DNA of 64,000 bases from an uncultured Parcubacteria group bacterium (GCA_947084965.1 CAMTUG010000001.1:211914-275913), one strand, 5' to 3'. Shown: positions 668 through 36,195, counted from the first letter of the stretch. Translations and numbers: made by a program. The notes: a model not told the origin generated them from the sequence alone.

Positions 668-714
668 GGTGTCTCCATGTCGGCGTTGCCGACGCGTGTG
701 AACGGACAGTGTGT

Positions 715-788
715 GTCCGCGAAAGAGGTGGCGAGCGATGCTCGTAAGCTCTTTTGCGGAGAGGATCGACCGTAGTGTCGATCCTCTC
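715..788 (-). promoter_or_regulatory. conserved intergenic element B1: 12-bp-stem hairpin (GAGAGGATCGAC..GTCGATCCTCTC) plus conserved 45-nt CCGCAAAAGAGCTTACGAGCATCGCTCGC..CTCTTTCGCGGAC
   Basis: A second copy at 1907-1973 has an identical 45-nt core but a different-sequence hairpin (GGGAAGTG..CACTTCCC). It sits upstream of gene 410..667 and downstream of gene 829..1401. Confidence 0.5.
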
Positions 789-828
789 TCACGCTGCAGA
801 CAGTGCCGGGTCTGCGAGCCGGGGCTGG

Positions 829-1401
829 TCAGTCCGCCACGACCTGCCAGGCGTCCCAGTAGGCCACGACCTCGACGGCCCGGGCCCGGATCTCGTCGCC
901 GGTGAGCGCCAGCGCCTCGTTGTTGCCGCCGGCGAGGTTCTTCACGAACCGCTCGTACCCGACCGGCGCCTTCGGACCGGCGAAGGCGAGGACCGCCACA
1001 AGGACGTGGGTGCAGTCCCTCTCCGAGATGTGGTGGAACTTCTCGGGCGTGCGCATCACGTCGGGGTCGGCGAGGTAGGCCTCGCGGGTGTACACGATCG
1101 CGGCGCAGGACTCGGCCGGGGCGGCGCAGGTGCGCTTGAGGAACAGGGAGGCCTGGCCGCGGTGCATCCGCACCACGTAGTCCTCGGGGTTCTTCGTGGT
1201 GCGCCCGACGCCCGCGCTGACCGTCTCGAGCACCTCGCTCGGCAGCATGATGAAGTGCTGGCCGGTCTGGCGGTCGGTCGACGGGTCGTGGGCGGCGACG
1301 GCGGCCTTGAGGACCTCCATGAAACGGGTGGGGTTGGTGACCTTCGTGCCGATCGTCTCGGTGGCGAAGGCGGTGAGGATGGACGAGTGGGCGATACGCA
1401 T
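829..1401 (-). CDS. hypothetical protein (190 aa)
   Basis: ATG at 1401 (MRIAHSSILTAFATETIGTKV...) with a GGAGAA SD 7 nt upstream. Strong GC3 bias. Track ORF 829..1446 is the same frame with 15 extra residues. Confidence 0.55.
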   Translation of the reverse strand: MRIAHSSILTAFATETIGTKVTNPTRFMEVLKAAVAAHDPSTDRQTGQHFIMLPSEVLETVSAGVGRTTKNPEDYVVRMHRGQASLFLKRTCAAPAESCAAIVYTREAYLADPDVMRTPEKFHHISERDCTHVLVAVLAFAGPKAPVGYERFVKNLAGGNNEALALTGDEIRARAVEVVAYWDAWQVVAD

Positions 1402-1463
1402 CTGTTGTTCTCCGTTCGTGTTGACTGATGCCGGACCTTTGGCCACCGGCTTCCCCTAGGGAG

Positions 1464-1527
1464 CGTTGCGGAAGTTTTTCCGCAACAGATGCCACGAGCT
1501 TAGCTCATGAATTCTGTTGCGGCGGGG
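1464..1527 (-). promoter_or_regulatory. palindromic element A2 (copy of A1) with an extra TTGCGGAA/TTCCGCAA hairpin
   Basis: CCGCAACAG 1480-1488 and CTGTTGCGG 1514-1522. The shared 19-nt core CCGCAACAGATGCCACGAG is identical to 332-350. Lies 63 nt upstream of the start of gene 829..1401. Confidence 0.5.
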
Positions 1528-1580
1528 AACGATGTGTTGCTCCCCGTCCACGTGAGTTCTCCAGGGTGAAGGTGCGTTGC

Positions 1581-1856
1581 TCAGTTGAAGGTGATGGCCA
1601 CCTCCAGCTCGTTCGCCTGCGCCTCGAGGCTGCGGGCGACGGCCTCCGGGCTGAAGGCCTCCGGGTTGGTCGCGAGAAGCTCCGTGAGTTCCTCGATGAA
1701 GATCGCACTCACGCGGTTGAGTGCTTCAGGCCTCTTCCCTCCGAGGAGGAGGATGAACCAGTCCGGGCGCTTGCGCAGCAGCTCGGCCTGCGCGCGCAGG
1801 ACGCCGATCTGCTTCTTCACGAACGCGACTTGCGCGTCCAGTTCTTCTTCCTTCAT
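1581..1856 (-). CDS. hypothetical small helical protein (91 aa)
   Basis: ATG at 1856 (MKEEELDAQVAFVKKQIGVLRAQAELLRKRPDWFILLLGGK...) with an AGGAG SD. Track ORF 1581..2036 is the same frame extended. Confidence 0.5.
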   Translation of the reverse strand: MKEEELDAQVAFVKKQIGVLRAQAELLRKRPDWFILLLGGKRPEALNRVSAIFIEELTELLATNPEAFSPEAVARSLEAQANELEVAITFN

Positions 1857-1906
1857 GGGGGACTCCTGGTGGTTGTTGGGGGAGAGTTGCGGTTGCCGTG
1901 AAGGGC

Positions 1907-1973
1907 GTCCGCGAAAGAGACAGCGAGCGATGCTCGTAAGCTCTTTTGCGGAGGGAAGTGAGTGCACTTCCCG
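1907..1973 (-). promoter_or_regulatory. conserved intergenic element B2 (copy of B1)
   Basis: GTCCGCGAAAGAG...GCGAGCGATGCTCGTAAGCTCTTTTGCGGAG is shared with 715-760. It is followed by a compensatory hairpin GGGAAGTGagtgCACTTCCC. Confidence 0.5.
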
Positions 1974-2036
1974 CCTAGCGTCGTTAGCGCGAATGAACGA
2001 TTCAGTCCTCCTAGTTGGTTTGTTGTTGGTTGTCAT

Positions 2037-2666
2037 CTAGGCCGCCGCCTGCTTCTTGTTCGCCGCGTAGCACGTCTCGCAGAGGATCCCGCGGGCGGGG
2101 TCGAGCAGCTTGCTCTCCTTGCCCATGACCTTGGCGGTGACGAACCCGCCGCAGGTGGTGCAGGAGTAGTGGGCGTGCTTCTTCCCTTCCAGCTTGCAGT
2201 GGCAGGTCTTGTCCTCCGGCAAGATCACGGCGTTGAAGACGATCTTCGCCGGGGCCGCGGCGAGCTTGTGGGCACGGGCGGCGTCGCGGCGCTTCTTCTC
2301 GTCCCGCACGTAGCGCCACCAGGCGATCTCGTGCTGGTCCTGCACGTGCGGCGGCTCCTCGTCCTCGTCGACCATCTCCTCGTCCTCGTCGGCCTCGCTC
2401 TCGCTGCCGCCGATGAGGTCGACCCAGGACTCGACCCCCGGGCTGCGGTAGACGAGGTCGGCCGGGCCCCAGGCGCTGAAGCCCTCGAGGTCCGAGTCGT
2501 CCAGCCCCTGCTCCTGGGCCAGCGCGAGGATCTCGTCGAGCTGGTCCTGGTTGAAGGTGCGGGACTTGTTCCCGATCTCGTACATGTCGCGCTCGGTGGC
2601 GCGGTCGTTCATCTCGCCGGCGTAGCGGGCGGCGGCGAGGGCGACGACGTTCTGGGGCTTGGTCAT
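2037..2666 (-). CDS. hypothetical acidic protein with C-terminal Cys-rich zinc-ribbon-like motif (CHC..H..C..C...C..C)
   Basis: ATG at 2666 with an AAGGAG SD. Asp/Glu-rich middle (EADEDEEMVDEDEE). C-terminal KTCHCKLEGKKHAHYSCTTCGG...CETC. Confidence 0.55.
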   Translation of the reverse strand: MTKPQNVVALAAARYAGEMNDRATERDMYEIGNKSRTFNQDQLDEILALAQEQGLDDSDLEGFSAWGPADLVYRSPGVESWVDLIGGSESEADEDEEMVDEDEEPPHVQDQHEIAWWRYVRDEKKRRDAARAHKLAAAPAKIVFNAVILPEDKTCHCKLEGKKHAHYSCTTCGGFVTAKVMGKESKLLDPARGILCETCYAANKKQAAA

Positions 2667-2835
2667 GGGATGCTCCTTCGGCTCAGTACGAGCAGATGGT
2701 TGTCGGTGGTGTCAAAGAGACCGTTTGGTAGTGGTCAGCTATCCGCAGCAGGGGTTGCTTGCCGGAACTCAGGAGCGAATCAAGGATTCGCTTCTAGGTT
2801 CCGGGTAGGGTGCGAGTGCACACCCTCCCGAGAGA

Positions 2836-3057
2836 TCACTTGGCCGCGATCGAGTCGCGGACGTTGGTCATCGGGACGCCGCCGTGGCGCCAGACGATGA
2901 CCTTGGCCGCCAGCTGGGGGTTGCCGCCGTAGCTGACGCGGCTGGTCGTGGCCCAGCTCATGGCGATCATGGCGATGGCGAAGCCGATGGTGATGAGGGT
3001 GGCGATCTGGATGTTGTTGGGGTTCGAGGCGTACTCGATGATCTGGGTGATGTCCAT
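2836..3057 (-). CDS. small membrane protein (73 aa)
   Basis: ATG at 3057 with an ACGGAG SD. Nearly every codon ends in G/C. Hydrophobic core IATLITIGFAIAMIAMSW. Confidence 0.5.
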   Translation of the reverse strand: MDITQIIEYASNPNNIQIATLITIGFAIAMIAMSWATTSRVSYGGNPQLAAKVIVWRHGGVPMTNVRDSIAAK

Positions 3058-3205
3058 GTGGGCTCCGTGGAAGAGGCATGGTCGTGTGACCGCGCCGGGG
3101 TGGGTGTTCTGGGCGGTCGGTGCCCAGACCGGAGAGGAGAAGAGATTCTCCGCTTTGGTCTGGGCCGGGCGCGCGTAGTTCGCACCCGGTCCGGAGAAGT
3201 GCGGC

Positions 3206-3433
3206 CTAGGCGGCCGCGGTGGTGTAGATCTCGATGATGCAGGCGGCGGCGGCCTGCTCGTGGGTGTCGGCGTCGATCTCGCCGATCACATGGCGGAGCT
3301 CGAGCTCCTCGGCCGCCATCCACCCGGAGGTCTCGCCGTCGGTCGCCTCGTCGCAGGCCACGAGGTCGAGGTCGATCGCGGGGGTGGCGTGGCAAGTGCA
3401 CTTGGCGGGGAAACAGGGGATACAGAGATACAT
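3206..3433 (-). CDS. small Cys-rich hypothetical protein (75 aa)
   Basis: ATG at 3433 with an AAGGAAG SD. N-terminal CIPCFPAKCTCH cysteine cluster. Confidence 0.4.
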   Translation of the reverse strand: MYLCIPCFPAKCTCHATPAIDLDLVACDEATDGETSGWMAAEELELRHVIGEIDADTHEQAAAACIIEIYTTAAA

Positions 3434-3924
3434 GGGGGCTTCCTTGGGTGAGGGACACTGACTGGCCGTGTGGCCGACGATCTACTGAGCGACGTTTCGC
3501 CCATGAATCTGGAGGGTAGGGACGCAGTGACCTGCCAAAGGCTGGTGTGCGTCATGACCGTCGAGTCCGTAGCAAGTGAGCTTGCGCCCAGTCGCTACGT
3601 TCGCCGGTCGACCGACTCGGTTTCCCGAGGTACGGCTACTCTCTCCTCCAGGTTCATGAACAAAAACCGCTTGTCTGTCTTGATCCTTTGGAGATCAAGT
3701 CAAACAAGCGGTAACGAACCCACCTATTCCTGCGCCCTCGTAAGGCGCCCAAATAGGTAGTTCGCGTTGACTCTCTCCCCAGAGAATATATGAGTTGTGA
3801 ATCCTGGGCGGTGAGCTCGTGACTCATCGTTCCAGGAGACTATTTATATCACATTTTGACCCTTCTGTCAAGGGAGTCAGGTGGTATTTGGGCCTAAGTT
3901 AGCCAAAATATTATCGGTAAATTC

Positions 3925-9803: not shown

Positions 9804-10564
9804 AGACGCTCGTCGCCAACTGGAAGATGCACTTGACGGTGCGCCAGTCGGTCGCCTTGGCGAAGGTGTCCGTTGCTGCGTTGCGTGGTAAAACGGCGCT
9901 GCCTGAGGTTATTCTCGCTCCAAGTTTTCCAGCGCTCGAAGCGGTGCACCGGGTGATAGCGAAAAGTCGCCTTGGCCTCTGCGCTCAGGATGTTTCCTTT
10001 GAAGACGCCGGCGCCTTTACCGGCGAAGTTTCTCCGCGACAACTCAAAGATCTCGGAGTCACCCATGTGATCATCGGTCACAGTGAACGCCGAGCGATGG
10101 GGGAAACGGATGCGACGATTAACAAGAAGGTGATCGCTGTGCTGGCTGCCGGAATGACGCCGATTATCTGCGTTGGGGAAAGGAAAGAGGAAAGAGGAAA
10201 GAGGAAAGAGATCGTCACCCGTCAAGTTAAAGCCGCGCTGGCGACACTGAAGACCCGGGCCAAGGAACACCTTGTTTTCGCTTATGAACCGATTTGGGCG
10301 ATCGGCACGGGTGATGCGGCGACTCCAGAAGATGCGGTTGCCATGCATGCCTGCATCCGGGAAACGGCGCTTGGGGCCATTGACGGACTAAAAGAAAAAC
10401 AACTGCGTGTGCTGTATGGTGGAAGCGTCAACGGAAAAAATGCGCAGAGTTTCTTGTGTGAAGATCAGATTGACGGATTGCTCGTCGGCGGGGCCAGTTT
10501 GAAACCTGTCGAATGGAAGGCGATTATCACCGCTGCGATCAAGATTCAAAATGGGAAACGTTAA
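9800..10564 (+). CDS. tpiA: triose-phosphate isomerase
   Basis: NWKMH, IIGHSERR, ICVGE, AYEPIWAIGTG and YGGSV motifs. Start overlaps the M16 stop (ATGA). Contains an in-frame (AGGAAAG)4 tract at 10181-10210 encoding RKEERGKRKE. Confidence 0.9.
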   Translation: MKTLVANWKMHLTVRQSVALAKVSVAALRGKTALPEVILAPSFPALEAVHRVIAKSRLGLCAQDVSFEDAGAFTGEVSPRQLKDLGVTHVIIGHSERRAMGETDATINKKVIAVLAAGMTPIICVGERKEERGKRKEIVTRQVKAALATLKTRAKEHLVFAYEPIWAIGTGDAATPEDAVAMHACIRETALGAIDGLKEKQLRVLYGGSVNGKNAQSFLCEDQIDGLLVGGASLKPVEWKAIITAAIKIQNGKR

Positions 10565-10565
10565 T

Positions 10566-11351
10566 ATGCTCTCCCTCTGGATTCCGCTCGGTATCATCAT
10601 CCTGTCGGTCATCCTTCTGCTCGTCTTGGCGATCAGAAAGATTCCGTATTTGCGCGCGCTTGATGTCCTTTCTGCACCGGAGCAAAAGGCTAAAGAGTTG
10701 AAACGTGCGCTGATCGCCTCGCGCCTTTCGCGTGCTGGGGCAAAATACGGAGGACAGATGAAGAAGATTTTTTCGCCGATCGTTGGAGCCGCCAAGTCGA
10801 GCGGAAGAAAGGCGGCAGAAAAAGTTTCTGCCCTTGAAGAACGCTATCAAAAGCTTCGGCGGGAAGCGATGGGACCGCACGCTCTGACTCCAGCGATGAT
10901 TAAAGAGATGATCAGTAAAGCCGAAGCGTTCATTAAGGATGAGCGATACGGCGAAGCGGAAAAAGCGTTAATCGAAGTTCTCTCCCACGATGCCAAGAAC
11001 GCTGAGGCGTACGAAACGCTCGGTTATCTATTCATGCTTCAGAAGAATTACGATCAGGCAGAAGAGACGTATAACTTTATCTTGAAAATTCAGCCAGGAG
11101 ACGCCTCGGTCCTAACGTCATTAGGGGAAATTGAATTGGCTCGAAATAATCCGGAGAAGGCGAAACAGTACTTCGATAAGGCGGTGAAGAAGCGTCCGCA
11201 TAATCCGAAGTATCTCGATTTTCTGCTGGAAGCATCGATCCAGGCTAAGGATGCTTCCGCAGCTCGCTGGGCGCTCGAGCAACTTCGCGGGGCGAATCCA
11301 GAAAATAAGAAACTCGGCGAATTTGAAGAGCGCATTCAATCGATTTCATAG
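10566..11351 (+). CDS. TPR-repeat protein with N-terminal transmembrane anchor
   Basis: N-terminal TM helix (LSLWIPLGIIILSVILLLVLAI), then about three TPR-like helical repeats (AEAYETLGYLFMLQKNYDQAEETYNFILKIQPGD...). Confidence 0.6.
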   Translation: MLSLWIPLGIIILSVILLLVLAIRKIPYLRALDVLSAPEQKAKELKRALIASRLSRAGAKYGGQMKKIFSPIVGAAKSSGRKAAEKVSALEERYQKLRREAMGPHALTPAMIKEMISKAEAFIKDERYGEAEKALIEVLSHDAKNAEAYETLGYLFMLQKNYDQAEETYNFILKIQPGDASVLTSLGEIELARNNPEKAKQYFDKAVKKRPHNPKYLDFLLEASIQAKDASAARWALEQLRGANPENKKLGEFEERIQSIS

Positions 11352-11365
11352 CTCGCGCACGAGCG

Positions 11366-11400
11366 ACCCTTTACAAAAGGGTCGTTTGTGTATAAGCTTG
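11366..11400 (+). terminator. intrinsic terminator after TPR gene (CGACCCTTtacaaAAGGGTCG + T-run)
   Basis: Perfect 8-bp stem followed by TTTGTGT. Marks the left edge of the high-GC island. Confidence 0.55.
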
Positions 11401-11452
11401 GACATCCTGTCTACCCAAATCAGGATGCCCCTGAACCTTCCCGAGGTGCCCC

Positions 11453-12589
11453 ATGTTCATCGCGCCGTTCATCCTTTCGCTCTTCGCTCCGGCCTTCGCC
11501 GAGGAGCCCGTCCCCGTCGTCTCGCCGGTCGCCGCGCCCAAGACCTACATCCTCGTCGCCGGGACGAGCGAGTACCAGAACGCGCCGGACCTGCCGGGCG
11601 TCGAGGGGGCGACCAAGGACTGCCAGACGATCGGTGCTCGGCTGATCGAGGTCGGGTTCACCACCGAGCAGGTCACCGCGCTCTGCGGCGACAAGCTCAC
11701 CAAGCCGGCGGTCGTCGAGGCGGTCAACACCCTGGCGCCCCGACTTGTTGCCGGGGACACCTTCGTCGTCGTCTGGATCGGCCACGGCGGCCAGGACCCG
11801 AAGGACGAGACCAAGAAGTACTGGCAGGGCTACGACGGCAGCTTCGTCGTCGATCCGGCCGCCCCGACCAACTACTTCACGACCGGGATCACCCCGACGA
11901 TGCTCACGAAGGCGATCAAGAGCAAGACGCCGGCCGGGACCCCGATCGTCCTCATGACCGACACGTCGGACAGTGGGTCCTACAACGGGATCCCGCTCAG
12001 CGGGCCGGTCGCCGACACCTTCGAGAAGGAGGTCTACATGATCTCCCCGGGGATGGCGCTTGGCAAGTCCGGGGCGCTCACGAAGTCGTTCATCGGCTGT
12101 CTCGAGCCCCGCATGCGCTACGGCGTCGCCGAGGAGCACACCGCGATCGAGGTCCAGGCCTGCATGTCGAACGGTCTCAGGGCCAGCAACATCGAGTCGT
12201 GGCTTTCCAGCGCGGACTGGGATACGATCACCACGCTCATCTGGTTCCCGCCGCTTCCGCCCGCGCTTCCCAGGCCACTCCCTGAGCAGACGGCCAGGAA
12301 GCCGTCGACGGTGAAGCCGGCGATGCGCTGGGGCGGTGTCGCCCTCGCCGTCATCGGTGGCGGTGGAGCAGCCGCGTCGTACCTCCACGCGGACGGCATC
12401 GCGGGACAGATCGCTGACGAGAACGGCGTCGTCGATCCCCGGGACGCGGCCGCGCTCGAGGAGTACAACCTGTTCAAGACCCTGACCTACGTCGGCTACG
12501 GTGTCGTCGGCCTCGGTGCGATCAGCTTCGGCGGTTCGCTCGTCGTCGCTCCCGCCCCGACCGGTGTCACGGTCAGCGGAACGTTCTAA
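11453..12589 (+). CDS. caspase-fold (peptidase C14-like) domain protein with signal peptide and C-terminal TM segments; catalytic Cys position occupied by Ser
   Basis: YILVAGTSEY...DCQTIGARLIEVGF...VVVWIGHGG...PIVLMTDTSDSGS matches the caspase/metacaspase strand order with His retained. DTSDSG sits where D-A-C-H-S-G is expected. N-terminal MFIAPFILSLFAPAFA signal. Gly-rich hydrophobic C-terminus. About 68% GC. Confidence 0.55.
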   Translation: MFIAPFILSLFAPAFAEEPVPVVSPVAAPKTYILVAGTSEYQNAPDLPGVEGATKDCQTIGARLIEVGFTTEQVTALCGDKLTKPAVVEAVNTLAPRLVAGDTFVVVWIGHGGQDPKDETKKYWQGYDGSFVVDPAAPTNYFTTGITPTMLTKAIKSKTPAGTPIVLMTDTSDSGSYNGIPLSGPVADTFEKEVYMISPGMALGKSGALTKSFIGCLEPRMRYGVAEEHTAIEVQACMSNGLRASNIESWLSSADWDTITTLIWFPPLPPALPRPLPEQTARKPSTVKPAMRWGGVALAVIGGGGAAASYLHADGIAGQIADENGVVDPRDAAALEEYNLFKTLTYVGYGVVGLGAISFGGSLVVAPAPTGVTVSGTF

Positions 12590-12614
12590 CCGTTCCGACC
12601 TCTCTAACGTGAAG

Positions 12615-12650
12615 CCCCCGACTGCAGACGGCAGTCGGGGGTTCGCATTT
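12615..12650 (+). terminator. intrinsic terminator (CCCCCGACTGC agacg GCAGTCGGGGG + TTCGCATTTTGT)
   Basis: 11-bp perfect stem and a T-rich tail just 3' of the caspase-like gene. Confidence 0.6.
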
Positions 12651-12694
12651 TGTCCGAGGTCCGGAGAGCGAGTGGCGCGCTCCGGACCGTCTGA

Positions 12695-13528
12695 CTAGCG
12701 GAAGTAGAGGGTGTGGTTGGACGCCTTGGGGCGTTGGCCGGCCAGTCGGTCGAACTGGGTGGGGACGAATCCCCCCAGGTTGACCCCCTGGAGACGCAGG
12801 GCCGAGGTTGCGTCGACGTCGCCGACCAGCCAGGCGTTCCACAGCGACTCGGCGAAGTCGCCGCCGCGGGTGCGCAGGGCACTCTCGATCACGGGCCAGG
12901 CTTCGTCCGAGTGCCAGTGATCGAACGGCGTGTACTCCGGCGGGAAGGTTGCCGGGAACCCGAACAGGGCGCGGAACCAGTTGGGGATCGCGCGGCGGGT
13001 TGCGATCTCCTGGTTGCGGAGATCGACCTTGGTGCGGTTCTCGCTCCAGAAGTCGATCTCGATGAAGGGCGTGTCCGTATCGCCCCCCTTGCGAACCGGG
13101 CAGAAGAAGATGGAGAACCCCGCGCTCACCTTGGCGCCGCGAAGGATCAGGAGGTTGAGCAAGGGTTCGAGCCGGGCCTTCATGCCCTTCTCGTCTCGCA
13201 TCTTGTCCAGGATCTTCGGGTGCTTCGGTCCGGCGCTGATCACCCAGCTCCCGAGCGGCACGGGGCCGGTCGTCTTGAGATCTTCGAGCACCGCCCGGAC
13301 CTCGACGAGTGCCGGGACGGACACGGGCTTCTGCCGTTCGCGGAACGGGGTGAGGGTCACCCAGGGCAGGCTCGGGTCGACCTCGTCCTTGTCGATCACG
13401 CGGTCGGTGGGGAGACGCAGGACCCGGCTCTTGTTGTCCGGTCGGTCGATGTCCGGCGTCCGGATGAACGAACGCACTTCGGGTGCGCCCTTCTTGGGAA
13501 CGGCGAAGGGGAGAGATCTCTGGGCCAC
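12695..13528 (-). CDS. hypothetical protein (about 277 aa, high GC), likely GTG start
   Basis: Long GC3-rich frame. The first 35 residues of track ORF 12695..13633 lie in AT-rich promoter DNA. GTG at 13528 is preceded by GAGGT. No recognisable domain. Confidence 0.45.
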   Translation of the reverse strand: MAQRSLPFAVPKKGAPEVRSFIRTPDIDRPDNKSRVLRLPTDRVIDKDEVDPSLPWVTLTPFRERQKPVSVPALVEVRAVLEDLKTTGPVPLGSWVISAGPKHPKILDKMRDEKGMKARLEPLLNLLILRGAKVSAGFSIFFCPVRKGGDTDTPFIEIDFWSENRTKVDLRNQEIATRRAIPNWFRALFGFPATFPPEYTPFDHWHSDEAWPVIESALRTRGGDFAESLWNAWLVGDVDATSALRLQGVNLGGFVPTQFDRLAGQRPKASNHTLYFR

Positions 13529-13589
13529 GGCTACCTCGGGGTTAAGGGTTTGCACATGAAAGCATTTTTTCAAATGAACGTCAATGATT

Positions 13590-13647
13590 ATTGACAATTC
13601 GCTTATTTTCGTGTTAAAGAACCGTTGGCACATTCACGGAGGTCTAG
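13590..13647 (+). promoter_or_regulatory. AT-rich divergent promoter region with TTGACA box and GGAGGT SD for the kinase gene
   Basis: TTGACA at 13592-13597. GGAGGT sits 6 nt before the ATG at 13648. This is the only AT-rich stretch inside the high-GC island. Confidence 0.35.
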
Positions 13648-15366
13648 ATGCAAGAACACCCAACGTCGTTTGGCGAAGGACGCTACCGCGTCGAGCGGCT
13701 GATCGGCCAAGGAGGGATGGCCAGGGTGTACCTGGCCTACGACACCCGGAACCACCGACCGGTCGCGATCAAGGTTCCGAACCCCAACCTGCTCACCCCG
13801 GACAAGGTGGTGCACGTGCGGGCGCGGCACGACAACGAACGTGCGGTCCTCGGAATTCTGGTCCACCCGTTCGTTCCGGCGCTCTACGATCACGGTGAGG
13901 AGCCGTCGGGGAAGGAGAACAACCCGACCACCACGCCCTACATCGTCATGGAGTACGTGCCGGGACGCGACCTCGAAGAGTGTCGGACCGAGTTCGGCGC
14001 ACTGCCGCCTCGGGTCGTCTGTCACGCCATGCTCCAGGTCCTCTCGGTTCTGGCTCAGCTCCACGCCGACGTTCGCGGGATCGTCCACCGTGACGTCAAG
14101 CCGGCGAACATCCGTCTGCGTGCGGACAAGCTCGTCAAGCTGATGGACTACGGGATCGCCAAGGTGCATCGCACCAGGGGCTCTGCCGGCAAGACGATGT
14201 TCCAGCCCAACATGACCCGGAGCGATTCACCGATCGGCACCCGCGGGTTCATGGGGATCGCCCAGATCTCGATGGATGCGGACCTCGGACCGCGGGCGGA
14301 TCTCTACGGCGTCGTGGCCACGATGGTCGCGCTCCTCACCGGCAAGGACCGCGCACCTGATCTGTGGAACGTGAAGGGCGAAGTGCACACTGCGCTCACC
14401 GGTGTGCCGCGGATCCTGCGGCCGATCATCATCCGCTGTGCGAGCGAGGTGATCCCAGACAACCAGAAGGTCACCTCGGCCGAAGAGTGCGCGCGCCTGC
14501 TCGAGGCCCTGATCGCCAAGCTTCCGGAAGATGACAGCGATCGCTTCTGGAAGTGGTTCCGGAAAGAGGGGATGACGATCGTTCCAGACGTCCTCGTGCC
14601 GAGCTCCTGGCCCGGTGGCGACATCGATGAGCACCTGCGTGAACTCCCGTCGGTCGATCGCTTCGTCCCCGAACCCGCGGAAGCGGAAGGGGAACCGGCG
14701 GAGTTCGATGACGAGGGATCGGCCCCGGACGATGAGGAGTTCGTCCCGGCTCGTCGATCGCGAGTCCTGCCCTTCTTCGGAGGGGCGGCTCTGCTCGCGG
14801 CTCTCTTCGGACTCGGCGTCGTGTTCTGGGGTGACGAACCGAGCGTGGTGCAGGAAAGTCTCATGCCGGCTGTCGCGGCCCCATCGAGCGCGGCCGTCAT
14901 CGAGATCGATCGAAGGGATACCCAACCGTCCCTCACCAGGATCGCCACATCGGATCCTGCGCCTTCACCCCCGCCTGAATCGGTCGGCGGTGTCCCAGCG
15001 ATCAACACGCCGCCCACACCAGCCGAACAGACCGATCGTCCGAAGATCGATCGGCCGGTCCGCGATCGTGTCCCGGCAACCGTCACCCCTGCGCCGGTCG
15101 TCACCCCACCCCCTCCGATCCCGGCCCAGGCCCCTCCGGCTCCGGTCGAGGAAGAAGAGAAGGGCACGGTGCGTGTCACGGGCGGAGTTCCGGTGCGGCT
15201 CAAGAAGGGGGGAGCGATCTTCTCCGCCCCGGGCTCGGTCAAGCCGGGCACCTACACGGTCGAGGCACAGTTCGCCGACACCTACACCCCGCAGATGGAG
15301 ATCACCGTGAAGCCCGGGGAGACACGGACCGTCTCCTGCGACCGCGACTTCACGTCCTGCGAATAG
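13648..15366 (+). CDS. Hanks-type Ser/Thr protein kinase, single-pass membrane, with Pro-rich linker and C-terminal PEGA-like beta domain
   Basis: GQGGMARV (G-loop), VAIK, HRDVKPANIRL, DYG (DFG variant), one TM helix (VLPFFGGAALLAALFGLGVVFW), PAPxPPP-rich region, and a terminal KPGTYTVEAQF...TVKPGETRTV motif. Confidence 0.85.
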   Translation: MQEHPTSFGEGRYRVERLIGQGGMARVYLAYDTRNHRPVAIKVPNPNLLTPDKVVHVRARHDNERAVLGILVHPFVPALYDHGEEPSGKENNPTTTPYIVMEYVPGRDLEECRTEFGALPPRVVCHAMLQVLSVLAQLHADVRGIVHRDVKPANIRLRADKLVKLMDYGIAKVHRTRGSAGKTMFQPNMTRSDSPIGTRGFMGIAQISMDADLGPRADLYGVVATMVALLTGKDRAPDLWNVKGEVHTALTGVPRILRPIIIRCASEVIPDNQKVTSAEECARLLEALIAKLPEDDSDRFWKWFRKEGMTIVPDVLVPSSWPGGDIDEHLRELPSVDRFVPEPAEAEGEPAEFDDEGSAPDDEEFVPARRSRVLPFFGGAALLAALFGLGVVFWGDEPSVVQESLMPAVAAPSSAAVIEIDRRDTQPSLTRIATSDPAPSPPPESVGGVPAINTPPTPAEQTDRPKIDRPVRDRVPATVTPAPVVTPPPPIPAQAPPAPVEEEEKGTVRVTGGVPVRLKKGGAIFSAPGSVKPGTYTVEAQFADTYTPQMEITVKPGETRTVSCDRDFTSCE

Positions 15367-15373
15367 CTCAACG

Positions 15374-15400
15374 CCCTCCTCGGTACTCGAGGGGGGCGCT
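15374..15400 (+). terminator. GC-rich hairpin after kinase gene (GCCCTCCTCGgtacTCGAGGGGGGC)
   Basis: Read directly from the sequence. The T-run is weak. Confidence 0.4.
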
Positions 15401-15456
15401 GCATTTATACGCTTGTCATTCCAGGACCGTTCGGGTATATTGACGCGGCAATATTA

Positions 15457-15531
15457 GCCGCAGTAGCTCAGTGGTAGAGCACCTCCATGGTAAGGAGGGG
15501 GTCTCGGGTTCAAATCCCGACTGTGGCTCCA
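15457..15531 (+). tRNA. tRNA-Thr (anticodon GGT)
   Basis: Cloverleaf GCCGCAG/ta/GCTCagtggtAGAGC/a/CCTCCatGGTaaGGAGG/gggtc/TCGGGttcaaatCCCGA/CTGTGGC/t/CCA. CCA is encoded. Confidence 0.85.
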
Positions 15532-15532
15532 T

Positions 15533-15568
15533 GAAAATAGATCAGAAGTTTCTGATCTATTTTCATTT
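15533..15568 (+). terminator. intrinsic terminator after tRNA-Thr (GAAAATAGATCAG aagtttc CTGATCTATTTTC)
   Basis: Perfect 13-bp stem with a T-rich 3' side. Confidence 0.7.
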
Positions 15569-15666
15569 AAGGGTGGGGATTTGAACCGTGGGAAAGGGGT
15601 ACGGGGAAAACGAACACGAGGGAGACCTGTTTGTGTTACAATTAAACAAAGGATGCATGAATATTT

Positions 15667-16677
15667 ATGAAAAAATCGACGCTTACGTATCTTAGTTTGT
15701 TGATCGTTCTTGGCCTGGCGATGGTTACAGGATTTTCTGTGATCAAGGATCGTTTTTTCACATCAGACAATTTGATCGCGGATAACACGAATGAGAGGGT
15801 GTTGAATGCCTTTAGTTGTAATAGCAGTCAAATGTTCATACCCCCGACAAGCGGAGAAGACTTAACGGAGATTCAATTGTATACCGCGCGAAGTGATGAT
15901 GGTGTTACTTTTGCAGATGAACGGGAGTTTATAAAAGGTGCGGGCGTACCAAGTGTGACGCAAGGTGAGGACGGAACGCTCTTTGCTGTTTTCAATTGGT
16001 TCCCATCCTATGCAGAAAATCCAGATTGCTATAACAAAATCGCCATGATGACTTCGAACGACGCTGGTGTTACATGGGACGGTCCGTTCGGTTTATTTAT
16101 CGAAGAGTTCCCGGACGATTATCAACTGCCTTATGATCCTACGATTGCACGAGACGCTGAGGGGAAATTTAGGATGTTTTTCACGACACATAAATTAGGT
16201 ATGGACGAGCCGTTTATTTACGGGAGTGCAGTATCTGAAGACGGTCTTCACTTTACTTATGACGGTATCGTATTTGAAAGTAAAGGTAATCATGTTGTGG
16301 ATGGCTCAGAAATATATTTCAACGGCAAGTGGATTATGATTGCCCCGCTCGCTAAGCAAAACGGCGAGGCCCTTCAGGCGACTTCCATTGATGGACGTTT
16401 GTTTGAGGTGGTGAATAGTAATCGGCCAAAACGCAGTATGTATTGGGTAGGAAATATGGTCGCACTTGCTGACGAAGTCCGTTTTTATGGTTCGTGCGGT
16501 GAAGAAACGGATCTTCGTGGACTTTGTTATAGTGCGACAACGGATGGGAATGTTTGGGATGATCCGGTCCTTACAAACGGTTACGCCGGTGATCCGGGGG
16601 TTGTATATCTGGATGATGGACAGTTCGTCATTATTTATGCAGAGCCTCGTGCGCCTGTCGTACCAATAGAACGATAA
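15667..16677 (+). CDS. secreted BNR/Asp-box beta-propeller protein (sialidase / glycoside-hydrolase-like), low GC
   Basis: Signal/TM N-terminus. S-x-D-x-G-x-T-W/F motifs (SDDGVTF, SNDAGVTWDG, SEDGLHF, TTDGNVWD). About 42-45% GC versus about 50% for the backbone. Confidence 0.6.
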   Translation: MKKSTLTYLSLLIVLGLAMVTGFSVIKDRFFTSDNLIADNTNERVLNAFSCNSSQMFIPPTSGEDLTEIQLYTARSDDGVTFADEREFIKGAGVPSVTQGEDGTLFAVFNWFPSYAENPDCYNKIAMMTSNDAGVTWDGPFGLFIEEFPDDYQLPYDPTIARDAEGKFRMFFTTHKLGMDEPFIYGSAVSEDGLHFTYDGIVFESKGNHVVDGSEIYFNGKWIMIAPLAKQNGEALQATSIDGRLFEVVNSNRPKRSMYWVGNMVALADEVRFYGSCGEETDLRGLCYSATTDGNVWDDPVLTNGYAGDPGVVYLDDGQFVIIYAEPRAPVVPIER

Positions 16678-16803
16678 AAGTGAGCGTCCGACGATCAACT
16701 TTTTAAAACACTGTTGTTGAAGCTCTTTTAGCTTGCCTAGAATAGTCCCTCACCAGGCCTTGCTTTTTAGCTTCCGTTTGTATATCATGCTCACGCAAAA
16801 CAT

Positions 16804-16890
16804 GGGCAGGTACCGAAGTGGTCAAACGGGGGAGACTGTAAATCTCCTGGCTTTACGCCTTCGATGGTTCGAACCCATCCCTGCCCACCA
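16804..16890 (+). tRNA. tRNA-Tyr (anticodon GTA), long variable arm
   Basis: GGGCAGG acceptor pairs with CCTGCCC. Anticodon stem-loop GGAGA-CTGTAAA-TCTCC. Type II variable arm. T-arm GATGGttcgaacCCATC. CCA encoded. Confidence 0.8.
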
Positions 16891-16891
16891 G

Positions 16892-17017
16892 ACCGGTCCG
16901 CAGATTTTGGTCCAGGACTGTGTTGCGGGGCCCTGTCGTCTTGTCGCCGTACGTTTCAGTACGGCTCCTGCGCCGACGTCCCGCGCCTTGTCCTGAACAC
17001 AAAATCTGCAGACCGGC
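16892..17017. repeat. 18-bp inverted repeat (ACCGGTCCGCAGATTTTG / CAAAATCTGCAGACCGGC) enclosing a GC-rich 90-bp spacer between tRNA-Tyr and tRNA-Thr
   Basis: Arms match 16/18. The spacer GC is much higher than the flanks and contains a CCGTACGtttcaGTACGG hairpin. Confidence 0.5.
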
Positions 17018-17027
17018 GCTAAAACAG

Positions 17028-17101
17028 GCCGGCGTAGCTCAGTGGTAGAGCAACACTTTTGTAAAGTGAAGGTCGTCGGTTCAAATCCGACCGTCGGCTC
17101 C
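17028..17101 (+). tRNA. tRNA-Thr (anticodon TGT)
   Basis: GCCGGCG acceptor pairs with CGTCGGC. D-arm GCTCagtggtAGAGC. Anticodon loop tTTGTaa. T-arm GTCGGttcaaatCCGAC. CCA encoded. Confidence 0.8.
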
Positions 17102-17157
17102 AGAGTATTGACGAAATCAGCCCGTTTTGTTACTATCCCAGCACATAAATTTGCCAT

Positions 17158-19899: not shown

Positions 19900-22800
19900 A
19901 TGTTTAAGCGGTTCGTCTGTCTGCTCGGGGTCCTTTCAGCAGTTTTTATTTTTGCCGGGGCAGAACCGGTGCACGCCGCGGCCTACACCTGGGATGGCGG
20001 GGGATCGACGAATAATTGGAGCGATTGTTTGAACTGGTCGACTAATGTCTGTCCGGTCGGAGCTGATACCGTAACCTTTGATGCCACCAGCACCAAAAAC
20101 GCTTCGATCGATGCCTCATGGGGTGGTTCAATTACGGGAATCACGATCGCCTCGGGTTATTCAGGAACGGTCTCTGTTGATCGTTCATTGGCGGTTAGTG
20201 GCGCATTTAGCATTGCCGCTGGCGCCTTTAACGGCACATCACAAAGCATAGACTTCAACGGGTCAGTGACCATTTCCGGAGGAACATTCACGGCTTCTTC
20301 TGGCTCGATGACTATGGCCGGCGGGTTTACCCATACAGCCGGGGGAACGTTTGCTCACAATAACGGTTCCATCACCATGGACGGCAGTACAGCGTTCACA
20401 TGGAATGTCGCTGTCACCGAGGAACTCTATAATCTCACCATCAACAACACCAGTACATCGGCGATCACTGTTGCGAGCGGCGACACATTGAATGTTAATA
20501 ACACCTTGACCTTCACTGACGGCTCGATCGCGACGGGTACGATCGCCGGTAAAGGGGCGACGATCGTCGTCGACGCTGGATGGGGAACGGGTTCAAACTC
20601 GAGCGGGACGTTGCTTGTGAACGGTGGCGGTGCGCAAACAGTCACCATCGCCCCACAGTCGAACGCCTCATTTGAAGCCTTTGATCAGCTCACCTTGAAC
20701 AACGCCTTAGCATCGATCACAGGGACAGGCGGCGCGGGTGCCATCGGTCTGGATAAGATTACCCTGACCGCTGGAACATTGAACGTTACTGGGTACACCT
20801 TGATCGCCAACGAAACGATGACGATTAACGGCGGTACCTTGACGCTCGGCACGACGGGGACATCGACGATCGGTTCAACCTTCAATCTTTCTGCTGGCAT
20901 CTTCAACGGCGGTTCTGCGACCGTTGATTTTAATGGCACTGTGACGATCTCTGGCGGGACGTTCAACGCATCTTCCGGTTTGCAGACGATGGACAGTAAT
21001 TTCACCCATACTGCGGGCGGGACGTTCAATCATGGCAACGGCTCGATCACGATCGATGGGAGCACGGCCGTGACCTGGGACGTGTCGACCACGGAAAATC
21101 TGTATAATCTCACGATCAACAATACGAGTACGTCAGCGATGACGGTGGCAAGCGGGGATACTCTGAACGTCAACAATAACGCAACATTTACCGATGGTGG
21201 GATTATCACCGGAACGATCGCGGTCAAAGGGCCTGCCGTCTCGATCGGGACAAACTTCGGTTTTTCTGCTTTCTCCAACGGTACTTTGACGATCAACGGT
21301 TCCGGAGCGCAGACGGTGACGATGGCGGTGCTGGCGGGTGCGGGTTTTGAGCCGTTTGATCAGATTATCTTGAATAACGCTGCGGCCACCTTTGGCGGAA
21401 CAGGCGCGGCTGGCACATTAGCTTTCGATAAAGTGACGGTTACTGCCGGTGTCTTTGACATGACTGGCTACACATTTTCGGCCAACGAAGCGGTCGTGGT
21501 CAATGGGGGGACGATGACCATGGGAACGTCTGGAACAAACACGTTTAGCGGCACATTCAGTCTTTCTTCGGGGACGTTCAACGGTGGGTCCGGGAATGTG
21601 AATGACTTTAACAGCACCATCACGATTTCCGGTGGAACGTTCAACGCTTCATCGGCCACAACGACTGCGGCTGGTGACTACACTCACTCGGCAGGCGGAG
21701 TGTTCAATCACAACAATGGGTTGTTTACCATCGACGGATCCTCTGGCTCGACGATTGATATTGGTACCACCGAGACGTTTTACGACTTGACGATAAATAA
21801 CAGCGCCACGACGGCGTTAACGCTCACGAGCGGAACGACACTGAATGTCAATAATGCATTGACGCTGACGGATGGAGGTTGGCTCTCGGGTACGATCGCG
21901 GCTAAAGGGCCAACGACGACGATCGGGGCCGGCTTTGGTTTCGCGACGATCGCCGCTGGTACGCTGACCATTAATGGCGTCGGTGTCCAATCGGTGACGA
22001 TGGCCGCTCTTGCCGCCGGGTTTGAACCCGTTGATCAGCTGACGATCAACAACGCCTCAGCAACCTTGACGGGCACTGGGGCGTCCGGGGTGTTGGCTTT
22101 TGATAAGGTGACGGTCACAGCGGGTTTGTTTGACGCCACGGGATATACGGTTTCCATCAATGAACCGGTTATCATCAACGGCGGTACCATGACCATGGGT
22201 AACTCCGGCACGAATACGTTCAACGGTACCTTCGCTATTTCTTCCGGAACGTTCAACGGCTCTGCTGCGACTCTGGATTTCAACAGTACCGTTACTGTGT
22301 CTGGGGGTATCATGAATTTCTCCTCAACCGTGACGTCGCTGGCCGGGACGTACACCCACACTGCCGGCGGCACGGTCAACTATAACGGCACGACCTTGAC
22401 CATCGATGGGGGCAGCGGCTCAACGTGGGACGTCTCGACCAACGAGACGGTACCGGCTTTGACCGTGGCTAAAACAGGAAGCGCGACATGGACGATCGCG
22501 ACGGGTGACACGATGATCGTTACGGGCACAACGCTTCTTACGGACGGCGAACTTTCTACGGGTGCGATTTCCGCCCGTGGCGACGTAACCGTTTCTTCCA
22601 CCTGGGACGGTGGGGCGGGGACATCCGTTCTCAGCTTGGATGGCTCGGGCGTTGTTGTGATGACCCACACCAACGGCGGCAACAACACGGAGCCAGCAAA
22701 TACCTTGATCGTGAATAATGCCAACGCGACGGTCAACATGCCGGCGACAGGCGCTTCATTTGTCTGGGGGTTGGATATTCGTGCTGGTGTGGTCAATGTC

Positions 22801-25800
22801 AATGGTGGTGATCTGACTGTGGGGAGTACCTATACACAGTCCGGCGGGACATTCAACGGCGGAGCGGGGAGTGTGACTACTTCCACCACGTACACCCTTT
22901 CCGGCGGGACGTTCAATGCGCCAAGCGGCACCTTGAATCTTGTTGATGACTTCACCCATACCGCTGGTGGAACGTTCAATCATAACAACGGCTTGGTGAA
23001 GACGATCAATGCCGTGGATCTTACCTTTGACTTCAACGTCTCTGAGACGTTCTATAATTTTGAATCTTCAAAAACAACGAACTGGCAGACGATCATCACT
23101 TCTGGGGATTCGTTGATCGTCCTGAATACAGCGACCTTGACTGACGGTCGAATCATGACCGGAACACTTGAAATCAAAAATACGTTATCGATCGCATCGA
23201 CGTACGATTACGGCAATGCGAGCCTAACGTTTTCGGGAACGGTCGACCAAACATTCACACTTCCTTCAGGGCAATCTGCTTCCTGGGACATGCCGGCGCT
23301 TACGGTTAACAAGGCTTCAGGTACGCTGACGTTCGGTTCGGATGTGACGTTGGATTGCGGGGGCACGAGTTGCAACCTCGTTTTGCAACAAGGGGTGCTT
23401 TCTCTTAACGGGTTTGGCCTGCGAGTTAATGATTTCTCGATCAGTAATGGAACGTTTATTTCCGGAGCGAGCACGGTTGATATCGATGACGACTTGACGA
23501 TTACTGGCGGAACGTTTAACGCCACGACAGGGACGACCATCATCGGCGGGGATTTTACCCATACCGCCGGTGGGGTGTTCAATCATAATAACGGGACGGT
23601 GGAGTTCGATACGTCAAATGATCAGACCATTAACGTCAATGTTAACGAAACGTTTTATACGGTTCGCATCAGTAAAAACGGTTTTCAACAGACGATTACT
23701 GCGGGGGACACGATTACGGTTCTCGGCAACCTATTGTTGACGGACGGTCGTTTTGGAACAGGAACGATTGATATGCAAGGCGCGGCGACGACCATCGCTT
23801 CAACTTATGACCCCAGTGATGTCACATTGAAGTTCACCGGTACGGCAGCACAGACGCTTGACTTGACCGGAGCGGCCGCCGTATTTGATGGGCCAGTAAC
23901 GATCGATAAGCCTTCTGGCGAAGTTGCTTTGCTCTCTGCTCTGACGATGGACACAAGCAGTCGCACCTTGACGTTGCAATCCGGAACGCTGAATCGGAAC
24001 GGGTTCGCTTTGACTGTCCACCACTACACCCAGACAGGCGGGACGTTCTCAAGTAGTGCGGGCAACGTTGACGTGAACGGTACGTTTACGCTTTCTGGGG
24101 GTACGTTCTCTGCCTCATCTGGAACGACGTTTTTTGGCGGTGCTTATACCCATACCGCCGGTGGAACGTTCGATCACAATAACGGTCGGGTGGAATTTGA
24201 CACCGCGGTGGACATTACTGCAGACGTTATCGGATCGGAGACGTTTTATGATCTGGCCATTACCAAAGCTGGGAATCTGGTCACGTTGGGGGCGGGCGAC
24301 ACGTTGATCGCCACCGGCGATCTGTATCTCACAGATGGTCGTTTTGGTGGCGGCACGATCGAAGCACGCGGCAACGTGACCGTGGCCTCGACGTTTGATA
24401 TTGGTAATGCTGCCTACACGTTTACCGGGAGCGCTGTTCAGACCTTTACTCTCGGAGTTGCTGCCAACATCGACGGCGACGTCACTGTGAACAAGAGCGG
24501 CGGATCGGTGGTACAGGTCGGAACGCTTACCCTGAACGCCGCATCACAAGATCTGACGATCGTTTCCGGAACGTATGATTTGAACGGCTCCAATCTCACT
24601 GTGAACGGCAGTAGCGGTACGTTAGTTGTACAGAATGGGGGTGTGCTTCAGCTTCAAGGTGGAGAAGTGGTCACTCTGAATGTCAGTAACCCGACGTTCC
24701 AGGCCGGAAGTTTGGCTCGCTACACCGGAACGGTCGGCCCGTATACCCTCAAGAACTGGACGTACAGATCGATCACGGTCGACGGAGGGGCAGCATCTGT
24801 TTTTGCTCTGCCAGGGGCGCTTTCTCTCCCTGCAGATCTGACGATCACTTCTGGAATCGTAAGTTTGGGGGGCAATGCGTTGACCGTTTCAGGAACGTTC
24901 TCAAATGACGGCACATTACGATTACGCGGGAACGAAACGGTGACGCTCACCAACGATGCTGATTCTGGAACGGTGGAATATGTCGGCGACGGCGATGCTG
25001 CGGCCGATGCCTATGTTCTTCAGAACTGGCCGTACTACCATCTCACCTTGGCCTTTGTGGACGCCCTTGATTCCGCGTCAGCCGGTGGAACACCGCTCGA
25101 CATCAATGGATCGTTTACGCTCAGCGCGGGGACGTTTACCGCTCCAGCGACGATGACCGTAGCTGGAAATTTTGCCCATAGTGGTGGGGTGTTCACGCAT
25201 AACAACGGTACGGTGGTTCTTGATGGGTTGAATCAGACCGTCTCAGGGACAACGACCTTTAATCACTTCACAAAATCTGTTAGTTCAGCAGCGACCCTGA
25301 CTCTTCCGGCAACAGCGACCCAGACGTTTGTCGGGACGATGACGCTGACGGGTGCGAGCGGGCAGCGTCTTTCCTTGCGCAGTTCTACGCCGGGGGTGCA
25401 GGCGCTGATCGATCCACAAGGGACTCGGACCGTTTCCTATCTCGACGTCCAAGACAACAATAACGCCAATGCAACGATGATCGTCTGCTCGACGGGGTGT
25501 GTTGAAGGCACCAACGTGACAAATTGGTCGTTCACCACGCCAGGGATCACAGTCGGAGCCATCTCCGGTGACACCACTGAAGCGGGGGGTACCGCCACCT
25601 TCACCGTCGTTCTCGAATCTGAACCAACCGCAGACGTGACGATCGGCGTGAGTTCTTCGGACGTAACCGAAGGGACGGTTGATCCGGCCTCCCTCACCTT
25701 TACTTCGCTCAACTGGGATACTCCACAAACGGTCACGGTTACTGGCACCGATGACTTCGTGATTGATGGCAGTGTTGTCTTCTCGATCGTTCTTGAGCCA

Positions 25801-36179: not shown

Positions 36180-36195
36180 GTCCAACGCGAGGCCG

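Follow-up and report, generated by a model that had tools for sequence, protein, structure and literature searches.

Introduction

Bacterial proteins with a p20-type caspase fold and an incomplete catalytic dyad, the pseudo-orthocaspases, have been described by Klemencic et al. 2019 (PMC6426788) and Asplund-Samuelsson et al. 2012 (PMC3501461). They account for 8.6-16 % of bacterial p20 proteins, and approximately 15 % of prokaryotic caspase homologs carry transmembrane (TM) segments (PMC6426788, PMC3501461). Here we report on an island of 4 kb, located at 11,400-15,399 of a 64,000-nucleotide (nt) stretch of DNA (the window, within which all positions are counted) from an uncultured Parcubacteria group bacterium (GCA_947084965.1 CAMTUG010000001.1:211914-275913). 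The island contains three genes only, A, B and C, which are predicted to encode an exported pseudo-caspase, a protein without a known domain and a receptor-type Hanks Ser/Thr kinase, respectively. Like the pseudo-orthocaspases, protein A would combine a p20-type caspase fold and an incomplete dyad with retention of both acidic pocket Asp residues, and signal-peptide-like or TM segments, as found in A, are common in that class. However, described pseudo-orthocaspases are usually Tyr-Ser (or Tyr-Asn), having lost the His too, whereas A is His-Ser or His-Ala, which is atypical. Unlike A, the described pseudo-variants occur mainly in Cyanobacteria and Rhizobiales, and for none of them has a constant set of three genes, with a receptor kinase and a B-type protein as partners, been reported.

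Three further kinds of described system bear comparison with this locus. The PknB/Stk1-like and myxobacterial Pkn kinases share with protein C an N-terminal cytoplasmic kinase domain, one TM helix and an extracellular sensor module. C differs from the receptor Hanks kinases in having no PASTA, PEGA or recognised ectodomain, with a two-Cys module of approximately 70 amino acids (aa) instead; it is always paired with a divergent B gene, and the activation segment of the window copy is without the usual APE motif. NTP-dependent conflict systems (Kaur, Burroughs, Iyer, Aravind 2020, PMC7159879) and defence systems consisting of a single kinase gene, such as PD-T4-6, resemble the trio in bringing together a caspase-fold protein and a Ser/Thr kinase in a compact mobile locus, and a hint of cassette diversification is a further likeness. 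In contrast to these systems, neither the three proteins nor those encoded next to them showed STAND, vWA-MoxR, GTPase core or EAD/EACC1 domains (A scored 21.3 bits with the NCBIfam caspase_w_EACC1 model, for which the cut-off is 140), and the caspase-like protein of the trio would be exported and inactive, unlike conflict-system effectors. Classical tRNA-linked islands also have a foreign composition, sharp intergenic borders and an adjoining tRNA gene. Unlike them, the island described here is only 4 kb in length, has no integrase, direct repeats or duplicated tRNA 3' end, and is positioned upstream of the tRNA promoter, not at the tRNA 3' end.

A search of PADLOC-DB 2.0 gave no specific match for all components of the trio, C being matched through its generic kinase domain only. 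Likewise, no description of the fixed trio, of the B family, of the two-Cys ecto-module or of an exported variant with His kept and Cys lost alongside a kinase was found in the literature. A reading made from the DNA alone, before any database was searched (the sequence-only reading), had claimed that this was not a described system, and the PADLOC and literature results agree with it. The trio is apparently a receptor-kinase module with accessory proteins, its parts individually familiar and one of them apparently a new protein family. The explanation we favour, with modest confidence, is that a rare, conserved cassette of three genes, serving transmembrane signalling, was acquired horizontally and is present here as the island.

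Recurrence of the trio in other lineages

The A(+)/B(-)/C(+) order was found in three other metagenomic lineages, in which the proteins are 24-40 % identical to the window copies. These relatives were reached through the genomic contexts of B homologs and of P0005, a full-length kinase relative, and comprise one population from Hainich groundwater metagenomes (contigs L085, L087 and L088), L086 (SRR32573209) and L091 (SRR22388305). Across these loci, identity to the window copy was 32-35 % for A (E 3e-30 to 2e-67) and 24-36 % for B. With respect to C, identity was 28-33 % over the full length, including the ecto-module, in the loci where the gene is complete (L088, L086 and L091), L085 carrying only the N-terminal 288 aa. 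The kinase was the divergent neighbour of B in six of the six loci with a readable upstream flank, L090 and L093 being too short to show the upstream neighbour of B. The trio is a conserved syntenic cassette. The pairing of a caspase-like protein with a Ser/Thr kinase, to which the sequence-only reading had drawn attention, extends to these three lineages.

A metagenome scan with the A alignment added two contigs only, both from the same Hainich population. No relatives of A and B were detected on viral contigs (scans) or plasmids (tblastn). In a second variant of the locus (L082/L083/L084 and L089) the divergent B-C pair is kept and A is replaced by a non-caspase protein of 269-277 aa, which has a weak TPR match, two C-terminal hydrophobic segments and an aromatic last residue. 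This A-slot protein is preceded by a MopE-motif repeat protein (PF11617, 'putative metal-binding motif', E 5.6e-52). The MopE-motif protein and the A-slot protein are located at 4534-6413 in L082 and 2116-3850 in L089, and TPR proteins flank these loci too.

The trio in the Hainich population is flanked on both sides by genes for Asp/Ser/Thr dipeptide-like repeats (DSDSDTDAD...; L088 4024-4308, L087 1-460).

Composition, borders and assembly of the island

When measured in 400-nt windows, the G+C (GC) content was 0.48-0.52 up to 11,399, 0.62-0.685 at 11,400-15,399 and 0.43-0.46 after 15,400. In 60-nt windows the steps were located at approximately 11,400-11,460 and 15,370-15,400, with a value of 0.47 by 15400. 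The shift between island and host genes was largest at third codon positions, where GC content (GC3) was 0.91 for A, 0.90 for B and 0.80 for C, compared with 0.42-0.65 in 12 host genes. Tetranucleotide distances to background were 2.7-3.2 for island tiles and 1.1-1.8 for typical tiles, approximately a twofold difference. These profiles bear out the GC island, and the borders, that had been proposed from the DNA alone.

The left border is formed by the hairpin that terminates a host TPR gene (11365-11383, + strand, with a T-rich tail to 11391), which reads GACCCTTT-ACA-AAAGGGTC, then GTTTGTGT (11365..11391), and the rise in GC content comes within approximately 60 nt after it. At the right border, a G+C-rich hairpin is found past the kinase stop codon (15372-15398, + strand); it was missed by the consensus terminator scan because of its weak T-run. 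The neighbouring tRNA-Thr(GGT) gene (15457-15531, + strand) begins 57 nt beyond 15400, outside the island, and is preceded by a host promoter-like site (TTGTCA, 17 nt, TATATT; 15413-15441, + strand).

An independent Logan assembly of run ERR3478686 yielded a contig (L001) which covers window positions 10181-15493 and contains the end of the host TPI gene, the TPR gene, all of A, B and C and the beginning of tRNA-Thr(GGT). As both island junctions lie inside L001, they are no artefact of the deposited assembly. No paralogs of A, B or C were found elsewhere in the window.

Logan contigs from the same run end within both tRNA-Thr genes (15457-15531 and 17028-17102), L001 stopping at 15493 and L092 corresponding to 15474-17064. 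Such breaks are expected if the tRNA sequences are common to other genomes of the sample, and they would also arise from an alternative (empty-site) join at tRNA-Thr(GGT).

Protein A, a predicted exported pseudo-caspase

Gene A (11453..12589, + strand, open reading frame (ORF) call) encodes a protein of 378 aa. In its upstream region (11398..11446, + strand) a tentative promoter (TTGGAC, 17 nt, CAGGAT) was read by eye only, the consensus scan giving no call, and a Shine-Dalgarno (SD) sequence GAGG at 11443-11446 sits 6 nt before the ATG. The terminator scan placed an intrinsic terminator at 12613..12643 (+ strand), with a 13-bp stem containing 9 G-C pairs, then CGCATTTTGT.

The score of A with Pfam PF00656 (Peptidase_C14) was 32.2 bits, above the gathering score of 21.4 (E 1.1e-7), the match being limited to the N-terminal half (A aa 34-173 versus profile positions 5-128 of 233). 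Its sole significant relative in PDB by sequence was the caspase-fold protein GSU0716 (PDB 3bij, E 2.8e-4; profile E 0.0064). A p20-like caspase-fold domain was recognised at approximately aa 30-200, and no p10 domain was detected. On these profile matches, which uphold the caspase-fold assignment of the sequence-only reading, A is predicted to be a caspase-fold (Peptidase_C14) protein. A single-sequence AlphaFold model of A had a mean predicted local distance difference test score (pLDDT) of 34.

The catalytic His, His111 in the motif GHGG(Q), is invariant in all members of the A family as aligned. This motif lines up with SGHGG in GSU0716 and in metacaspase-4, and with the corresponding motif of Yca1. 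At the position of the catalytic Cys (D-x-C-H-S-G) the window protein reads D-T-S-D-S-G, with Ser172, and three other members have Ala (D-T-A-R-G-G in L085/L088 and L091, D-S-A-R-S-T in L086). Since the residue is Ser in the window copy and Ala in its homologs, the nucleophile would be lost and a Ser-His mechanism would not be conserved. D56 (in G-A-T-x-D-C) and D170 (in T-D-T/S) are invariant in the family. In the metacaspase TbMC2, Asp95 and Asp211 form the pocket that gives specificity for basic residues (PMC6426788). By motif alignment and the residue list of that study, we infer that D56 and D170 correspond to these two residues. A is thus predicted to be a pseudo-protease in which the His and both pocket Asp residues are kept and the Cys nucleophile is lost, again as proposed from the DNA alone.

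The N-terminus of A is signal-peptide-like, reading MFIAPFILSLFAPAFA followed by EEP, and the counterpart in L086 reads MLTILSLVTSVALA followed by DEP. A Cys pair (C57 and C78) is invariant in the family alignment. Towards the C-terminus, hydrophobic helices were indicated by hydropathy at approximately aa 290-316 and 343-375, followed by an invariant SGxF end. From this layout we infer that the domain of A is extracytoplasmic and membrane-anchored.

A HicB/HicA-like toxin-antitoxin pair of approximately 40 % GC lies directly upstream of A in the Hainich population (L087 590-1118; L085 3270-3694), and this insertion may have truncated the 5' end of gene A in the Hainich copy.

Protein C, a receptor-type Hanks kinase

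Gene C (13648..15366, + strand) encodes a protein of 572 aa and is preceded by the SD sequence GGAGG at 13638-13642. The kinase domain, at aa 13-294, matched Pfam Pkinase with E 1.8e-28, and contains the Gly-rich loop, the VAIK Lys, the alpha-C Glu, the HRDxKPxN catalytic loop and the DFG Asp. Residues G22, G23, K42, E64, H147, R148, D149, K151, N154 and D167 are invariant in five members of the C family, as is Thr190 in the activation loop. Given this invariance of the Hanks catalytic residues, the kinase should be active. The kinase domain is followed by an acidic juxtamembrane stretch, one TM helix at approximately aa 371-396 (hydropathy), a Pro-rich linker and a C-terminal ecto-module. The single-pass Hanks kinase of the sequence-only reading is therefore confirmed by the Pkinase match, the invariant catalytic residues and the one TM helix.

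The ecto-module comprises approximately 70 aa, with invariant G, P and Y residues and two invariant Cys (C564 and C571). It had been described from the DNA alone as PEGA-like. No match to PEGA (PF08308) was obtained at E <= 10 in five ecto-modules, which leaves that label unproven. The best Pfam match was to CarboxypepD_reg, in one of the five members and below the cut-off of that profile (E 0.0098), and no PDB sequence matched the ecto-module at E < 0.2.

With respect to related kinases, the best NCBIfam match of C was the PknB/Stk1 kinase domain (E 1.5e-43). Against the full-length PknB/PASTA family NF033483, C scored 149.7 bits versus a cut-off of 450, with only profile positions 6-205, the kinase domain, being matched, and no PASTA domain was found in C in the Pfam search. 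The nearest kinases outside the family were from Polyangiaceae and other Myxococcota, followed by actinobacterial PknB-type kinases, with 31-40 % identity over the kinase domain only.

Protein B and the divergent promoter

Gene B (12695..13528, - strand) encodes a protein of 277 aa, with a GTG start at 13528 after a GAGG SD sequence. The longest possible ORF would be 312 aa and extends into the AT-rich spacer between B and C. Hydropathy indicated no hydrophobic segment in B, which is predicted to be cytoplasmic. Searches of Pfam, NCBIfam, PHROGs and PADLOC gave zero matches, in keeping with the earlier statement that a recognisable domain is lacking in B. When 1.84 billion representatives were scanned exhaustively with HMMER, nine homologs of 266-313 aa were identified (E 1.5e-28 to 3.6e-5), so that the family amounts to approximately 10 proteins among these representatives. 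Orphan status had been suggested for both A and B by word-indexed searches, which returned the queries only. This status was rejected, as exhaustive HMMER and synteny gave relatives, and the null result of the word-indexed searches reflects their sensitivity limit.

Motifs conserved in the B family are PAxV, SWxI...P, CP, PF, PxGY..DPW, LW..W and a C-terminal T-x-Y-F. Of two Thr residues in the C-terminal tail, Thr273 is invariant and Thr257 nearly so; the tail is of low confidence in a structure model that is otherwise confident. No structural neighbour or known fold was found for B. The alignment and the model together suggest that B is a real family without a known domain or fold.

The AT-rich region between B and C (13529..13647, 119 bp, sequence read) contains two -35 boxes arranged back-to-back, TTGACG at 13584-13579 (- strand) and TTGACA at 13591-13596 (+ strand), each with a -10-like hexamer 17 nt further on its own strand. 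The GTCAA...TTGAC pair is kept, and the B-C spacer is 118-133 bp, in six loci. An operator for B was considered for this pair and rejected, as the spacing of the arms varies from 4 to approximately 20 nt and the 17-nt gap to the -10 is constant. Because of this constant distance to the -10-like hexamers, the TTGAC boxes are taken to be the -35 elements of two divergent promoters. Three genes with their own SD sequences and terminators and an internal divergent promoter had been read from the DNA alone, an arrangement which our analysis retains and, for the promoter, extends to all six loci.

Apparent replacement of part of the cassette between two loci

Comparison of the loci in L088 and L091 at the DNA level revealed a mosaic. 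Identity is 82 % over a stretch that starts inside A and ends 67 nt beyond the A stop codon, and 73 % over a second stretch, which takes in approximately the last 260 nt of gene C and continues into the flank downstream of it (L088 478-1197 and 3573-4151, versus 4-724 and 3127-3696 of the reverse complement of L091). No DNA similarity was detectable between them across B, the promoter and the cytoplasmic and TM part of the kinase. At the protein level, identity was 77 % for A and 62-68 % for the ecto-module, versus 25-29 % for B and approximately 33 % for the cytoplasmic part of the kinase. Either B, the promoter, the kinase domain, the TM helix and most of the linker were replaced together, or they diverged far faster than their surroundings. 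In this mosaic, B is linked with the cytoplasmic half of the kinase and A with the outer half. The mosaic hints at diversifying selection, this being the sole such observation and coming from one pair of loci.

Origin of the island

The caspase-type trio of the relatives is found at 57-64 % GC and, in the longer contigs (L082 and L088), beside DNA of similar GC content; the housekeeping gene ychF of L082 has a GC3 of 0.87. With the relatives at 57-64 % GC, the island is most simply read as a transfer out of a high-GC lineage. Its donor would be unsampled, because the known relatives are just 24-40 % identical to the window copies. No relatives with the trio at approximately 50 % GC were found, and horizontal acquisition, as put forward in the sequence-only reading, is still the best reading of the island.

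No integrase or recombinase gene was found in the island by gene calls and profile searches, nor was a duplicated tRNA end present. Direct repeats at the island borders, a check for which had been proposed in the sequence-only reading, were also absent, none of at least 11 nt joining the island ends. With no integrase and no repeat, and with the tRNA promoter lying between the island and the tRNA gene, the adjacency to tRNA-Thr(GGT), noted in the sequence-only reading, is probably incidental.

Proposed function and alternative explanations

Judging from its synteny, its predicted proteins and its composition, which is foreign to this genome, the trio probably represents a signalling cassette that is rare, has not been described before and moves horizontally. 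In the mechanism we propose, A would be exported and membrane-anchored, and would act outside the cell with the ecto-module of the kinase as a non-catalytic binding (co-sensor) subunit, its likely ligands being peptides with a basic residue. The signal would cross the membrane helix of the kinase to the cytoplasmic kinase domain. B would be the dedicated cytoplasmic partner of the kinase, either as substrate, regulator or output, and Thr257 and Thr273 in its putatively disordered tail are candidate phospho-acceptor sites. Since a non-caspase anchored protein occupies the slot in the second variant, the A position may be an exchangeable input slot. The cassette would have come from a high-GC donor that is unsampled, the recipient genome having approximately 52 % GC, and its entry would have left neither an integrase nor att repeats behind; the trio island would be one of several such insertions.

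A number of observations weigh against this proposal. The sensor and substrate roles are predicted from synteny and topology, and the fold of A from sequence profiles that do not extend beyond the N-terminal half of the p20 domain. In its called ORF, the Hainich copy of A is without a signal-like segment, and export may not hold for every member. A mirror-tree comparison of B with the kinase domain gave r = -0.18 over 15 locus pairs, in which identities are saturated. When the membrane anchors of the two A-slot variants were compared by hhalign, the result (E 0.026, probability 2 %) did not demonstrate homology. The B homolog in L093 (P0129, 12-842) is followed by an unrelated low-GC ORF (899-1384) and no A gene, the contig end cutting off the side of B where the kinase would be. 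Finally, no donor lineage, empty site or insertion scar turned up, and the data contained no close relative of the host.

The mosaic of L088 and L091 is the pattern of a polymorphic locus and, together with the rare, patchy and horizontally mobile character of the cassette, it could point to a conflict, immunity or kin-recognition module. The kinase would then detect an invader or a non-kin cue, B would be a latent effector or variable specificity partner, and strains would exchange cassettes. The sequence-only reading had raised the idea of a conflict module, and the one cassette replacement between related genomes favours it indirectly, as does the common use of caspase-like and kinase domains as effectors in bacterial conflict systems (PMC7159879). 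The kinase domain also matches the PADLOC PD-T4-6 and MADS kinase models, but these matches represent generic Pkinase similarity; A reached only E 3.9e-4 with the PADLOC caspase model, over 85 positions, and B matched nothing. The defence-type components themselves are missing, as no NTPase, vWA-MoxR, STAND or EAD component is present in the trio and no defence genes were seen next to it. Moreover, A, if it is without a nucleophile, cannot be a proteolytic effector, no relatives were found on viral contigs or plasmids, and the mosaic is known from a single pair of loci. Such a module is possible but, in our judgement, unlikely. Rather unlikely too is a novel type of polymorphic surface-to-cytoplasm recognition or immunity module in which A and the ecto-module would form a conserved outer receptor, B and the kinase domain would be exchanged together between strains, and B, with a fold not seen before, would be the effector or target that determines specificity; such a module would spread horizontally to distant lineages, including this small-genome host, which would repeatedly take genes from a high-GC partner or neighbour.

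A PknB-like envelope monitor was also considered, in which the pocket of A would bind Lys or diaminopimelate of the peptidoglycan stem, or another envelope peptide, and the kinase would tune wall synthesis or division via B. The predicted location of A and the ecto-module outside the cell is compatible with such a role, as are the PknB/Stk1 kinase domain as best NCBIfam match of C (E 1.5e-43) and the retention of D56 and D170, the acidic S1 residues that take a basic P1 residue in metacaspases (PMC6426788); in addition, fusions with peptidoglycan-binding or amidase domains occur in some bacterial caspase homologs (PMC3501461). However, C has no PASTA or other wall-binding domain and falls far below the full-length family cut-off (149.7 versus 450 bits), wall-synthesis genes adjoin the cassette in no locus, and a housekeeping role fits poorly with rarity, foreign composition and cassette replacement, which makes this explanation improbable. 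With respect to origin, the island might owe its composition not to acquisition but to intrinsic GC heterogeneity of the lineage or to a contig chimera of two organisms. Five islands of the same composition are present in the window, several of them single genes placed tightly between host genes, the related contig L082 is likewise a GC mosaic (0.52-0.69), Logan contigs break within tRNA genes, and an integrase, att repeats, a donor and an empty site were not found. Nevertheless, both island junctions lie within one independently assembled contig, proteins of three other islands are also in Logan data, and five chimeric joins within 64 kb would be unlikely. The shift was largest in GC3 (0.8-0.9 versus 0.4-0.65), as for foreign codon usage and not for a protein-driven bias, and homologous trios are found in high-GC genomes. 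We therefore regard an origin without acquisition as very improbable. The suggestion that A is an active protease using a Ser172-His111 dyad, for which the Ser at the Cys position of the window copy and the retained His111 could speak, is scarcely credible given Ala at that position in all three other members (TDTARG or TDSARS).

Should the acquired signalling cassette that we favour be real, the receptor Ser/Thr kinases of bacteria would have a new accessory architecture, in which an inactive exported caspase-fold protein is the partner outside and a dedicated protein of unknown fold the partner inside the cell. The cassette would also provide a concrete, testable function for pseudo-orthocaspases, whose roles are largely unknown. 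The B family is a candidate new fold and, as its neighbour is an intact kinase, it has a clear experimental handle. The L088/L091 replacement and the five same-composition insertions in 64 kb bear on gene acquisition by small-genome uncultured bacteria.

Host genes and further islands in the window

Host genes have a GC content of approximately 0.52. In the window they include holB, two M16 peptidases, tpi, typA, HIT, NUDIX, rfbB/rmlD, glycosyltransferases, a Ctp protease and pyrG. The host TPI had at most 47 % identity to any of 185,579 species representatives, and PyrG, RfbB, HIT and both M16 peptidases were singletons at 90 % identity among approximately 15 billion proteins. Exact look-ups of flanking host proteins returned the same sample only, and no other member of the host lineage seems to have been sampled.

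At least four further stretches of approximately 65 % GC were found in the window, at 1-3650, 36101-37250, 47401-48900 and 49951-51000, with GC3 of 0.77-0.99. Three of the four consist of one gene each, set closely between housekeeping genes of the host and sharing their orientation. These genes are one for an acyltransferase (36196-37071), 17 nt from both of its neighbours, one of which is typA, one for a 446-aa protein without a domain match (47494-48834) and, immediately after the NUDIX gene of the host, a NUDIX-like ORF (49924-50826). The island at 1-3650 encodes small proteins without Pfam or PHROG matches. Proteins of three of these islands (1-3650, 36101-37250 and 47401-48900) are also present in Logan data. 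A search for a border motif common to the five islands gave nothing convincing.

Terminator hairpins after two of the other islands (48860-48884 and 50848-50872) have a common loop core, CAGTACGTG, in G+C-rich stems, and the kinase terminator (15372-15398) has a similar GGTACTC centre. The common loop core may be the signature of one donor lineage, or chance. Among the host genes, an ORF of 2885 aa at 19900-28557 (+ strand) has host composition and no Pfam domain at E <= 0.001, and further large host ORFs without domains are located at 40737-42812, 43208-44899 and 44856-46325.

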